12,620 nucleotides of DNA from a virus: positions 1-12,620 of the IMG/VR virus record IMGVR_UViG_3300024518_000024, one strand, 5' to 3'. The position numbers and the translations under genes were made by a program. The notes beneath the pieces were generated by a model, which was not told the origin of the DNA, ran no database searches, and worked only from the letters and a program-made list of their open reading frames with translations. Position 1 is the stretch's first letter. The number at the start of each line of letters is the position of its first letter. Of the stretch, positions 123 through 12,620 are shown piece by piece.

Positions 123-426
123 CAATCCTGCTTTTCTTACATATAGGGAAGTCTGCTCTTGTGAATTGCCCTGTTTTCGTAGCACAACCCTTACAGAATA
201 ACATTTTGTGATATTTGCATTGATAATAGACATCAAACATCTCATTCTTACACCAAGAGCAATCCAATCCCGTTGAAACTGGCTCAGTAGAATCGGCAAT
301 GCCTTGAGCAACCTTGTTTTCAGAAGCTCTTCTTTCAGCTCTTAGCTTCTGCCTTGCTATCTCTTGAATGTGAGGACTGTTATCACCTTGCCACCTTTCG
401 ACATCAACACCCATCATCTCACTCAT
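79..426 (-). CDS. Cys-rich putative zinc-binding protein (115 aa), function unknown
   Basis: ORF track. The C-terminal half has CSWC-x12-CKYH-x5-CKGC-x15-C spacing typical of zinc-ribbon or treble-clef folds. Its ATG overlaps the upstream RHH gene stop (ATGA, 423-426), indicating a two-gene operon. Confidence 0.6.
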   Translation of the reverse strand: MSEMMGVDVERWQGDNSPHIQEIARQKLRAERRASENKVAQGIADSTEPVSTGLDCSWCKNEMFDVYYQCKYHKMLFCKGCATKTGQFTRADFPICKKSRIDKINCIWERTNVSF

Positions 427-665
427 TTCTTCACCTTCTTAAAAATCTTAGTTTTAAGCTTGTCAATATCCTGTAAACTCTTCATCTGTATATCTGCTCT
501 ACCTATCTCAAACTGCAACTCATCATCAGACATAAGGGCTGTGGGATCATCAGTCTTAAGGAAATGATCCTTAAGAACTTGATTAACCAAAGAAGAGGCA
601 TTCGACTCCTTTCTCAAACGTTCTGCTAATTCCTGATCAATCGAGAATATCTTGTTAGTCTTCAT
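423..665 (-). CDS. Ribbon-helix-helix (CopG/Arc/MetJ-like) transcription regulator, 80 aa
   Basis: The N-terminus KIFSIDQELAERLRKESNASSLVNQVLKDHF fits the beta-strand/helix/turn/helix RHH pattern. It is the first gene of the - strand unit, divergent from the structural operon across the repeat-rich intergenic region. Confidence 0.7.
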   Translation of the reverse strand: MKTNKIFSIDQELAERLRKESNASSLVNQVLKDHFLKTDDPTALMSDDELQFEIGRADIQMKSLQDIDKLKTKIFKKVKK

Positions 666-867: not shown

Positions 868-1108
868 CTGTCACTCAGTGACAATTGTAGTACCTATATT
901 CAGTGACAGTGACAATGTAGTACCTAACCGTAGAGAGGCTCTAGAGGCCATATTTGGGTACTTCAGCCCTTATGCATTTTTCATTGTTACTAAGTGACAG
1001 TTACAATATATATGTCACTACAATTATGTTACAGTGACACTATTGGTTCGCTTAACTGTAACTCAGTGACAGTTACAAATCTGTCACTGTCACGTAGTAA
1101 CAGTGACA
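868..1108. repeat. Iteron-like array: 11 copies of GTGACA/TGTCAC plus related GTTACA/TGTAAC motifs, arranged as nested direct and inverted repeats
   Basis: GTGACA starts at 878, 903, 909, 994, 1034, 1066 and 1103. TGTCAC starts at 869, 1013, 1082 and 1088. A 20/21-nt direct repeat CAGTGACAA(T)TGTAGTACCTA lies at 876-896 and 907-926. The 13-mer GTGACAGTTACAA lies at 994-1006 and 1066-1078. Inverted repeats are TGTCAC-tca-GTGACA (869-883) and TGTAACT-cagtgac-AGTTACA (1057-1077). Confidence 0.85.
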
Positions 1109-1119
1109 CCGACGTTGTA

Positions 1120-1151
1120 GGGGGGGGGATAATGGGGGGGGGTCATCCCCC
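1120..1151 (+). repeat. Twin homopolymer tracts G9-ATAAT-G9 followed by TCAT-C5 (potential G-quadruplex or GC hairpin)
   Basis: Counted directly: G at 1120-1128, ATAAT at 1129-1133, G at 1134-1142, TCAT at 1143-1146, C at 1147-1151. Confidence 0.9.
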
Positions 1152-1161
1152 AGACAAAAAT

Positions 1162-1169
1162 ATTATATA
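1162..1169 (+). promoter_or_regulatory. TATA-box-like octamer ATTATATA ending 22 nt before the terminase ATG (1191), preceded by A-rich BRE-like acaaaaa
   Basis: The sequence is cagacaaaaatATTATATAgttaacagtattaggcgaacaATG. There is no Shine-Dalgarno before 1191. Confidence 0.6.
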
Positions 1170-1190
1170 GTTAACAGTATTAGGCGAACA

Positions 1191-6319: not shown

Positions 6320-6455
6320 ATGGAAAGACCAGAAAAAGATACTGGTTAAACACCTAGAAACAGCTGAAAAGAACAGAAAGACAGCTAACGACCAAATAGA
6401 TGAGCTAACTCTAACTATCTCAGCATACGATGAGAAAATCAAAACATTTAAATAA
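6306..6455 (+). CDS. Small coiled-coil hypothetical protein (49 aa)
   Basis: My own translation is MNKAEWKDQKKILVKHLETAEKNRKTANDQIDELTLTISAYDEKIKTFK*. It overlaps the scaffold-like gene end by 14 nt and fills an otherwise non-coding gap. Confidence 0.4.
   Translation: MNKAEWKDQKKILVKHLETAEKNRKTANDQIDELTLTISAYDEKIKTFK
6447..6454 (+). promoter_or_regulatory. Canonical TATA-box-like octamer TTTAAATA ending 22 nt before ATG 6476 (decoration and capsid genes)
   Basis: The sequence is atcaaaacaTTTAAATAatccgttcaccgaataactctATG. There is no Shine-Dalgarno and the upstream flank is A-rich. Confidence 0.55.
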
Positions 6456-6475
6456 TCCGTTCACCGAATAACTCT

Positions 6476-11965: not shown

Positions 11966-12202
11966 ATGGGAGAAACAGCAGAATTCGTAAAGGAGTTCAA
12001 TAAAGAAAAAAGTTTAAGCGAGAAGATTGAATGCGGAATAGTCCCTTGTGATGAAAAACTGCATAGGAAATCATTGAAAGCAACAGATGTACGAGAAGCG
12101 GTGCGGAGGTTGAAGCAAGCGACAGAGGAAGGACATGACGATTGGAATCTAAGTACAATGCTTAAAGAAATTGATGAGATATTCGGGGAAGCTCTCACAT
12201 GA
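11966..12202 (+). CDS. Hypothetical protein (78 aa), paralog A of a tandem pair
   Basis: It shares K(S/P)LSEK, EAVRRLK and LKE(I/L)(D/N)EIFGE blocks with the next ORF. Nucleotide identity is visible too (gtgcggaggttgaag in both). Confidence 0.6.
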   Translation: MGETAEFVKEFNKEKSLSEKIECGIVPCDEKLHRKSLKATDVREAVRRLKQATEEGHDDWNLSTMLKEIDEIFGEALT

Positions 12203-12417
12203 AACCACTGAGTGAGAAGGTCTTTGATGCAAAAGGGACGTGCTACACGGGTAAAGTCATTGAGGCCTGCAATGTTGCTGAGGCTGTGCGGAGGTTGAAG
12301 GAATTAACAAAGTCATGGATATTTGGAGAAGGCCCGTTTATGATAAACGAAGATAACATTGACGAGTACCTTAAGGAATTGAACGAGATATTCGGGGAGA
12401 TGAGAGAATGGGGATAA
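12199..12417 (+). CDS. Hypothetical protein (72 aa), paralog B of a tandem pair
   Basis: See paralog A. The ATG overlaps the paralog A stop (ATGA at 12199-12202). Confidence 0.6.
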   Translation: MKPLSEKVFDAKGTCYTGKVIEACNVAEAVRRLKELTKSWIFGEGPFMINEDNIDEYLKELNEIFGEMREWG

Positions 12418-12593
12418 CACCAAACAATCTCATGCTTGAGCGTGTGATCATGAAAAGAATGCAGGAACTATTAGATCAAGGTGAAGGGGAGCTCATAGAC
12501 TCCGAGATCGCAATCTGCAAGCTCAAATATGGGAAAAACTGGCACAAGGCCTACCGAGATCAAGTTATTTCAAACGTTAAAAAGAAACATTAG
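12408..12593 (+). CDS. Hypothetical protein (61 aa); its 3' end lies in the terminal repeat and converges on the - strand Zn-binding gene
   Basis: ORF track. It overlaps the preceding gene by 10 nt. On the circular map its last 17 nt overlap the 3' end of the - strand gene (coordinates 79-95). Confidence 0.5.
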   Translation: MGITPNNLMLERVIMKRMQELLDQGEGELIDSEIAICKLKYGKNWHKAYRDQVISNVKKKH

Positions 12594-12620
12594 TTCTTTC
12601 CCAAATACAGTTTATTTTAT
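12499..12620. repeat. Terminal direct repeat, copy B (identical to 1-122)
   Basis: See copy A. Confidence 0.95.

Follow-up and report, generated by a model that had tools for sequence, protein, structure and literature searches.

A dense GTGACA hexamer array upstream of the terminase gene of a 12.5-kb virus: possible origin-associated iterons

Introduction

What does a dense array of short repeats do directly in front of the terminase gene of a very small tailed virus? The question is raised by positions 868-1108 of the IMG/VR virus record IMGVR_UViG_3300024518_000024, whose whole stretch of 12,620 nucleotides (nt) is here termed the window. Hexamers of the form GT[G/T/A]ACA are packed there on both strands, between a minus-strand gene pair (79-665) and the plus-strand gene for the terminase large subunit (terL, 1191-2513), the first gene of the structural operon, just as an earlier reading of this DNA (the original prediction) had placed them. 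That prediction offered three possible roles, namely a packaging recognition site, a regulatory array bound by one of the small DNA-binding proteins of the virus, or an accessory part of a replication origin. The last of these is favored here, since a canonical archaeal origin recognition box (ORB) lies in the same region, and GTGACA repeats and ORB clusters share one slot among related viruses and tend to exclude each other. With a probability of roughly 45%, the array is considered to consist of origin-associated iterons, that is, of expanded binding sites for a dimeric and probably host-encoded factor.

The hexamer array and its composite units

GTGACA/TGTCAC occurs 15 times on the two strands of the window, 11 copies falling within 869-1108 and four elsewhere. 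The 11 exact copies of the array start at 869 (minus), 878 (plus), 903 (plus), 909 (plus), 994 (plus), 1013 (minus), 1034 (plus), 1066 (plus), 1082 (minus), 1088 (minus) and 1103 (plus), where about 0.13 copies per 240 nt would be expected by chance; in 2000 dinucleotide-preserving shuffles of the genome, no 240-nt segment contained more than four. The hexamer array is therefore real and far beyond chance, and the earlier count of 11 exact hexamers in about 240 bp is borne out. The GTTACA/TGTAAC variants that had also been pointed out amount to seven GTTACA/GTAACA copies, bringing the total to 18 hexamers with the consensus cA-GT[G/T/A]ACA-[G/A]T. No copy departs from G1, T2, A4, C5 or A6, and the more variable flanks prefer cA...[G/A]T. 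Start-to-start spacings of 6 nt (direct and contiguous) and 9 nt (inverted, with a 3-nt spacer) are the most common. Such clustering of one specific motif near an AT-rich region is what characterizes iterons.

The array is divided into two hexamer clusters (869-926 and 985-1108) by a GC-rich spacer containing the motif TAGAGAGGCTCTAGAGGCC (931-949), and a motif akin to it, GAGGCTCTA/GGCTCTA, is found in the relatives L005, L013 and L052 (L-numbers denote relative loci). It resolves into six composite units with a spacing of 31-38 nt, of which TGTAACTCAGTGACAGTTACA is an example, and the higher-order palindromes, direct copies and tandem hexamers listed in the original prediction were all recovered. 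Unit 1 (869-883) is the inverted pair TGTCAC-tca-GTGACA, or TGTCACtcaGTGACA, and unit 2 (903-914) reads GTGACAGTGACA; the span 876-926, which includes unit 2, carries two direct plus-strand copies of CAGTGACAA(T)TGTAGTACCTA (876-896 and 907-926) 31 nt apart, and its GTAGTA(C) submotif recurs in L052. Unit 3 (985-1005), TGTTAC-taa-GTGACAGTTACA, joins an inverted hexamer to a direct double hexamer and has its copy in unit 5 (1057-1077), TGTAAC-tca-GTGACAGTTACA, which can equally be written TGTAACT-N7-AGTTACA; the direct repeat GTGACAGTTACAA is present at 994 and again 72 nt downstream at 1066. In unit 4 (1013-1039), TGTCACTAC precedes GTTACAGTGACA; read on the opposite strand, the former is GTAGTGACA, the version retained in relatives. 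Unit 6 (1082-1108) is a 12-nt inverted repeat, TGTCACTGTCAC (1082-1093)-gta-GTAACAGTGACA, whose right arm directly abuts C-CGACGTT.

These units are mutual duplicates, as indicated by exact repeats of 20/21 nt and 13 nt and by a family of 35-nt segments that are 63-71% identical. Five further assemblies of this virus, from other samples, reproduce the array without a difference, three over its full length and two over part of it. Folding of 860-1112 as single-stranded DNA gave a z-score of -5.2, which is expected from inverted repeats and separates none of the readings considered below; a scan of 600-1300 against Rfam returned no credible RNA, and no tRNAs were found.

The same slot in related viruses

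Searches with the TerL protein yielded 25 IMG/VR loci, to which later searches added more, and the comparison set comprises about 25 lineages with the relevant intergenic region. Immediately 3' of the array, the window carries a family-wide conserved element (1109-1156, plus strand), CCGACGTT-gta-G9-ataat-G9-TCATCCCCCAGAC, with its G9 runs at 1120-1142. The general form of this element, (C)CGACGTT-N4-8-G7-9-N3-7-G7-9-TCATCCCCCAGA followed by an A/T-rich TATA region, was detected in 24 loci, always upstream of terL or of an HNH-terL pair. Candidate roles are those of a cleavage site, of an upstream promoter element and of extended G-strings. L030, with 35% TerL identity, has the variant CGACG-C8-G-C6-G-C5-GC-G8.

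Conservation in related genomes, by which the original prediction proposed to judge the repeats, holds for a single inverted repeat and fails for the array as such. Most of the 22 TerL-related IMG/VR loci contain no GTGACA upstream of terL, other lineages hold one to three copies, and the large amplification is found only in the window lineage. What recurs is TGTYAC-N(9-19)-GTAGTGACA, or a close variant, no more than 120 nt upstream of CGACGTT in eight other lineages (L006, L009, L024, L022, L036, L154, L155 and L156; TerL identity to the window 37-83%); counted over 25 lineages, nine, the window among them, have GTGACA no farther than 120 nt upstream of CGACG. The junction GTAGTGACA-(C/A)-CGACGTT is the same in four lineages (the window, L154, L155 and L156), and an exact 19-mer of unit 1, ACTGTCACTCAGTGACAAT, is common to L006 and the window. 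Given these recurrences, the window appears to have amplified an older family module.

Wider searches brought little beyond this family. A search with a 17-mer palindrome recovered the relative L006/L028 and three further matches, about the number that chance would give; a scan of viral contigs for GTGACA arrays gave 94 matches, none from the family of the window virus, and the combination GTGACA...CGACGNT...G6, sought among viral contigs in a second scan, brought in nothing new except the full L024 contig. An intergenic GTGACA/TGTCAC array also flanks two G6 runs at 320-450 of L084 (IMGVR_UViG_3300037049_000005), an unrelated high-GC phage, where it looks like a convergent, operator-like arrangement. 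Other members of the family carry dense repeats of their own in the slot of the array, namely L013 (887-1190), with 7-10 copies of TTTTCA/TGAAAA in both orientations directly against CGACG, L019 (266-427), with a tandem 8-mer TAGACGTA in 5-6 copies, and L009 (687-745), with four copies of ATTTACACACTACATT. A repeat array at 1084-1215 of L016 was considered as a further counterpart and rejected as coding for a CxxC peptide repeat: the region 1084-1350 contains an open reading frame (ORF) of 88 amino acids composed mostly of CxxC tripeptide-pair repeats (CKFCNYCDYCDYCNYCDYC...), which give the DNA its 9-nt period.

Origin recognition boxes and a putative replication origin

The canonical ORB of the window, TTCCAGTGGAAAT-A-GGGGGG (also written TTCCAGTGGAA-AT-A-GGGGGG), is located on the plus strand at 732-751, with its dyad at 732-742, and its 13-nt core matches the Pyrococcus mini-ORB at 13 of 13 positions. 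Pyrococcus ORBs are bound in vitro by Cdc6/Orc1 (PMC1904270), and archaeal origins and their ORBs have been reviewed (PMC4010727). Across the family, the ORB dyad [TC]TCC-N3-GGA[AG] occurs 33 times in 14.0 kb of intergenic zones (20 loci) versus once in 134.8 kb elsewhere, an enrichment of more than 300-fold, and is often followed by ATAGGGG. Because of this canonical ORB and of the enrichment of ORBs across the family, the intergenic region is very probably the viral replication origin, with the AT-rich stretch beside the ORB (666-731) as a possible unwinding element. No replication protein or replication domain was detected when the 20 ORFs of the window were scanned against Pfam and PHROGs; with no viral initiator, the origin would depend on host Orc1/Cdc6.

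The relationship between the two kinds of repeat points in the same direction. In the 450 nt upstream, ORB dyads number 0-1 in each of the nine GTGACA-positive lineages and 2-4 in 9 of the 16 GTGACA-negative ones (simple hypergeometric P ~0.006, the lineages not being independent). No ORB dyad occurs anywhere in the complete 12,489-bp genome L155, nor in L154, L006, L022 or L036, and exactly one is present in each of the window, L009 and the full L024 contig. The junction that GTGACA forms with CGACGTT in the window is formed by an ORB dyad in L011, L012 and L002. With a shared slot and a tendency to exclude each other, GTGACA repeats and ORB clusters appear to be alternative solutions to a single task, and origin recognition is the only established task of ORBs.

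From these observations we infer protein binding, a host-encoded binder and origin function. The array would be a lineage-specific expansion of the short inverted repeat TGTYAC-Nx-GTAGTGACA, which would itself belong to the origin and late-promoter control region of a family of ~12-kb head-tailed viruses with probably archaeal hosts. Since the window encodes no recognizable replication protein, it would recruit host machinery through sequences in its own DNA; many relatives would do so by means of canonical ORB clusters (sites for host Orc1/Cdc6) directly against CGACGTT-G8-N5-G8, and a second group has a GTGACA inverted repeat in the same slot. In the window, this repeat would have been multiplied into the six composite units with their 18 hexamers. 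A dimeric, sequence-specific protein would bind the hexamers cooperatively; as the motif is not accompanied by any particular viral protein, this binder is most likely of host origin. The resulting nucleoprotein complex, with the AT-rich stretch and the one ORB that is left as its neighbors, may help the origin fire; its contact with the upstream element of the late promoter could also tie late (terL) transcription to origin firing.

Several points weigh against such a role. No initiator is known to recognize GTGACA, which also differs from the TTCC/GGAA core of ORBs; the ORBs of this family were themselves assigned by motif only. The large amplification is peculiar to the window lineage and hence could be dispensable, and its position against the conserved element upstream of terL would fit a packaging or a purely transcriptional role equally well. 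The exclusivity of GTGACA and ORB clusters was seen in a set of ~25 mosaic lineages that are related in part, and several of these are represented by incomplete contigs. Moreover, close TerL relatives have been binned with both bacteria of the Candidate Phyla Radiation (CPR) and DPANN archaea. There is nevertheless a precedent for archaeal origins that can need a non-ORB motif bound by a non-initiator protein, namely ucm and its binding protein UBP in Sulfolobus (PMC12141716).

Genome context and probable host

An exact 122-nt terminal direct repeat (1-122 and 12499-12620) indicates a circular or circularly permuted genome of 12,498 bp, an unusually small size for a virus that encodes TerL, portal, HK97-type capsid and tail fibre. 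The gene content comprises TerL, a probable portal protein, the major capsid protein, a LamG-domain protein, a tail fibre, an HNH nuclease, a Top1-type zinc-ribbon protein and small ORFs. The longest noncoding stretch of this genome, 666-1190, is the one that houses the array, which ends 83 nt before the ATG of terL. Centered ~26 nt before this ATG (1191), a TATA-like box, ATATTATATAG (1159-1170, plus strand), would, by known archaeal promoter geometry, be the archaeal-type promoter of a leaderless late operon. All four operon-first genes (p80, terL, p132 and p55) have TATA-like boxes ~26-30 nt before the start codon and no leader, and internal genes carry Shine-Dalgarno-like motifs.

The best TerL E-value was obtained with a haloarchaeal tailed virus; closer relatives in genome collections are small contigs binned with CPR bacteria or Nanoarchaeota/Woesearchaeota, and more distant ones lie inside Bathyarchaeia chromosomes. 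The major capsid protein gave no match, and no cultured phage is close to the window virus. Taken together, the ORBs, the promoter layout and the placement of the TerL relatives suggest that the host is probably archaeal and plausibly a member of DPANN. In the literature, neither this group of viruses nor an archaeal factor that binds GTGACA was found to have been described.

Short palindromes recur in the intergenic regions of the family, including TTATTCGG-N4-CCGAATAA, GTGCACTAAGGT and GAGGCTCTA. In the window, the perfect palindrome TTGAATCGT-ac-ACGATTCAA (800-819) stands where the relatives L001, L004, L005, L013, L020, L021, L036 and L037 have TTATTCGG-N4-CCGAATAA, so that the two forms differ in both arms and agree in their symmetry. 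The half-motif CACCGAATAACT of the family palindrome is also present at 6446-6472, between the TATA box TTTAAATA and the start of the gene for a 132-residue protein (6476), where it may be a promoter-proximal or leader element. At 11966-12417, two adjacent genes encode paralogues of 78 and 72 amino acids that have ...EAVRRLK... and a C-terminal EIFGE in common, and their family recurs in L021, L022, L024 and L155.

Two resemblances of the hexamer itself were set aside as possible coincidences: GTNAC is recognized by MaeIII, and TGTCAC/GTGACA recalls TATCAC-N5-GTGATA, the motif of TrmBL1.

Candidate viral binding proteins

Nearest to the array lies the gene for p80 (423-665, minus strand), whose transcription runs away from terL. 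Its product of 80 amino acids has a ribbon-helix-helix (RHH)-like N-terminus and, at the C-terminal end, a long helix. A word-index search for homologues returned p80 itself only, and an exhaustive search gave 45 representatives, which define a family of 70-150 amino acids with the N-terminal pattern MK-x-x-K-x-F-S-L-D-x-E-L...N-A-S-x-L-V-N; a subset of the alignment was used for locus searches, the full alignment being too diverse. AlphaFold 2 modeled p80 with extended residues 1-10, helices at 11-19 and 23-39 and a long C-terminal helix (predicted local distance difference test score 82). Longer p80-type proteins of 143-147 amino acids, with an RHH-like N-terminal domain, a coiled coil and a C-terminal domain, are encoded in L030 (1650-3387), L054 (176-2237) and L056 (1018-3262), and in L054 and L056 a small nuclease gene lies between the p80-type gene and terL.

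Could the array then be the operator of p80, possibly together with the Cys-rich protein, as in the arrays of omega, ParR and CopG? The gene adjoins the array in the opposite direction, the predicted extended N-terminus, two helices and long helix fit an RHH protein, as does the sequence pattern, and the contiguous direct and inverted short repeats resemble the heptad arrays of omega. The fold itself, however, found no significant match with Foldseek or in a profile search of the PDB. Alignment with CopG- and ParG-type strands places the predicted DNA-reading residues at positions 4, 6 and 8. The window, L030, L052 and L053 all have N-I-S there, despite four unrelated arrays, so the repeats do not covary with these residues. 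What the four genomes do share is AGT-rich repeats flanking the TATA box of the RHH gene; in the window these are TAGTAGTTAGTTAAGTA and ATAGTAGTAGTAGTTGTAG at 672-688 and 709-727, on either side of the box at 689-700, which itself falls within the AT-rich stretch. Nor does the array overlap a promoter, as an operator would be expected to, since it starts ~170 nt from the p80 TATA box and ends ~50 nt before that of terL.

Two contigs of one sample bear on this point. L158 is identical to the window up to ~557, continues with another RHH N-terminal domain (MKFQKMICLD...), has GAAGAA instead of TAGTAG repeats around the RHH TATA box (L158 1-100) and ends at about window position 755; L162 starts at window position 756 and, as far as the end of the array, matches the window with 100% identity. 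Judged by their sequences, these ends have the pattern of an assembly-graph branch point, so that the swapped DNA-binding domain would go with the promoter-flanking repeats and apparently not with the array. This suggests that the AGT-rich repeats are the RHH operator, with domain and site exchanged together as one module. Furthermore, the GTGACA-positive relatives L155, L154 and L006 have no RHH gene and instead carry genes for winged helix-turn-helix (wHTH)-like and zinc-ribbon proteins. Binding of the array by the RHH protein is thus disfavored, and an operator function for p80 appears the least probable of all the explanations considered.

The zinc-finger and Cys-rich proteins that the original prediction had named as further binders fare no better, in that no relative links them to the array; except for L158, homologues of the Cys-rich (115 amino acids) and zinc-ribbon (99 amino acids) proteins are on contigs too short for context. 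Pfam searches with the small nuclease, wHTH-like and oligonucleotide-binding (OB)/zinc-ribbon proteins of relatives gave nothing usable, so that a label of Hjc-like resolvase, suggested by eye, is not adopted. Because the window and the GTGACA-positive genomes have no nonstructural protein in common, a host factor or a conserved packaging protein would be a more economical binder.

Alternative explanations

The strongest competitor of origin-associated iterons, though still unlikely, is a purely transcriptional upstream element, in which the hexamers would be activator or repressor sites, of host or viral origin, at the late terL promoter with no role in replication. The proximal unit ends ~50 nt upstream of a TATA-like box that precedes the terL ATG by ~26 nt, and the fixed GTAGTGACA-C-CGACGTT junction of four lineages suggests one composite promoter-upstream site. 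Neither the G-rich element nor GTGACA occurs at the p132 and p55 promoters, making the element specific to the terL operon. Yet known archaeal operators and upstream activating sites make do with far fewer sites than 18 over 240 bp, the motif is not paired with any viral regulator, and the same slot holds Orc1/Cdc6-type ORB dyads in other lineages, which points to replication factors. Ranked next, and doubtful as well, is a packaging recognition site of the cosB or pac type, where the terminase, possibly with the HNH nuclease, would cut at CGACGTT-G8-N5-G8 and a small-terminase-like protein would assemble on the GTGACA repeats. HNH nucleases assist cos cleavage in HK97-like phages, and one is encoded in the window and many relatives; the array abuts the most conserved noncoding element of the family, always upstream of terL or HNH-terL; the p80 relatives of L030, L054 and L056 are co-directional and just upstream of terL, the classical position of a small terminase; and a unit spacing of 31-38 nt could suit DNA wrapped on an oligomeric ring. 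Against this, a packaging site would have no reason to exclude ORB clusters, no repeat array accompanies the conserved element in many relatives (L007, L015-18, L016 and L021), and in the window that element separates the array from terL. The small DNA-binding proteins also differ among GTGACA-positive genomes (RHH in the window, wHTH-like in L155, L154 and L006), and no independent assembly of the virus breaks near 1100-1160, which is weak evidence only.

Rather improbable, and placed behind both, is a variant of the origin reading in which the GTGACA repeat and CGACGTT-G8-N5-G8 would form an ORB-like composite of dyad and G-string, a noncanonical origin-recognition element exchangeable with canonical ORBs. 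The family would then switch between hijacked host initiators or origin factors by swapping dyads, and the window would be a hybrid with one ORB and an amplified alternative dyad. Very unlikely is a functionally neutral expansion, in which slippage or recombination amplified a short palindromic module whose extra copies are unused. Such a history would account for an amplification unique to one lineage, where others hold one to three copies, and for units that are clear duplicates, but it sits poorly with a hexamer core kept invariant in 18 of 18 copies among diverged flanks, a pattern of selection on a binding core, with the identity of the array in assemblies from five other samples, and with a 12.5-kb genome whose overlapping genes leave little room for 240 nt of junk.

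Implications

If the array is indeed a set of origin-associated iterons, a very small tailed virus without a recognizable replication protein would rely on a landing pad of ~500 bp to recruit the replication and transcription machinery of its host. The alternation of ORB clusters and GTGACA repeats in one slot beside an invariant G-rich element would make the family a natural experiment, in which host factors recognizing non-ORB origin motifs in archaea outside Sulfolobales, the takeover of Orc1/Cdc6-dependent initiation by minimal archaeal viruses, and the coupling of replication, late transcription and packaging within one compact region all become testable. The array and the conserved G-rich element also make convenient sequence markers by which this undescribed group of viruses can be detected and classified in metagenomes. 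An ORB-bearing origin without viral replication genes, together with the invariant G-rich element, is arguably more interesting than the array itself.

Comparison with known systems

Archaeal ORB and mini-ORB clusters, such as that of Pyrococcus oriC, resemble the array in consisting of multiple short dyad repeats in both orientations within an intergenic origin region that has a canonical ORB and G-strings. The repeats of the array abut a G-rich extension, and real ORB dyads fill the same slot in relatives. The setting is likewise that of an ORB cluster, with the ORB beside the AT-rich stretch, the G9 runs and the family-wide enrichment of ORBs. The core, however, is GTGACA rather than TTCC-N3-GGAA: the units of the array are TGTNAC-N3-GTGACA and GTGACAGTNACA, the strict ORB pattern is found only at 732-742, outside the array, and no orc1/cdc6 gene stands beside it, the element being viral. 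The Rep iterons of plasmids and phages are comparable in being dense, in using a short specific motif near an AT-rich stretch and in changing the motif between related replicons while keeping the position. They differ in being direct repeats of 17-22 bp, whereas the units here are hexamers or 12-mers in both orientations; moreover, no Rep or initiator gene lies nearby, and no viral protein covaries with the motif. Since the array departs from ORBs in sequence and from Rep iterons in having no initiator nearby, it is not filed as a member of either class, although it would work like origin iterons or mini-ORB clusters.

Outside replication, lambda-type cosB, with its R sites beside cosN, offers variable repeats in both orientations next to a conserved site near the terminase gene; unlike cosB, the array is on the far side of the conserved element from terL and tends to exclude ORB clusters. 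The operator arrays of RHH proteins (omega of pSM19035, ParR/parC, CopG and MetJ boxes) share the contiguous direct and inverted short repeats and an adjacent, divergent RHH-like gene, but covariation is lacking here, the repeats linked to the RHH gene appear to be the AGT-rich ones at its own TATA box, and GTGACA occurs in relatives that have no such gene. The Sulfolobus ucm differs from the array in being a single 11-bp AT-rich motif inside the unwinding element, with no sequence similarity, and UBP is restricted to Sulfolobales and Desulfurococcales; what the two have in common is an origin-associated motif that is not an ORB, and because ucm is bound by a host protein that is not an initiator, it provides the precedent for the host factor proposed here (PMC12141716).

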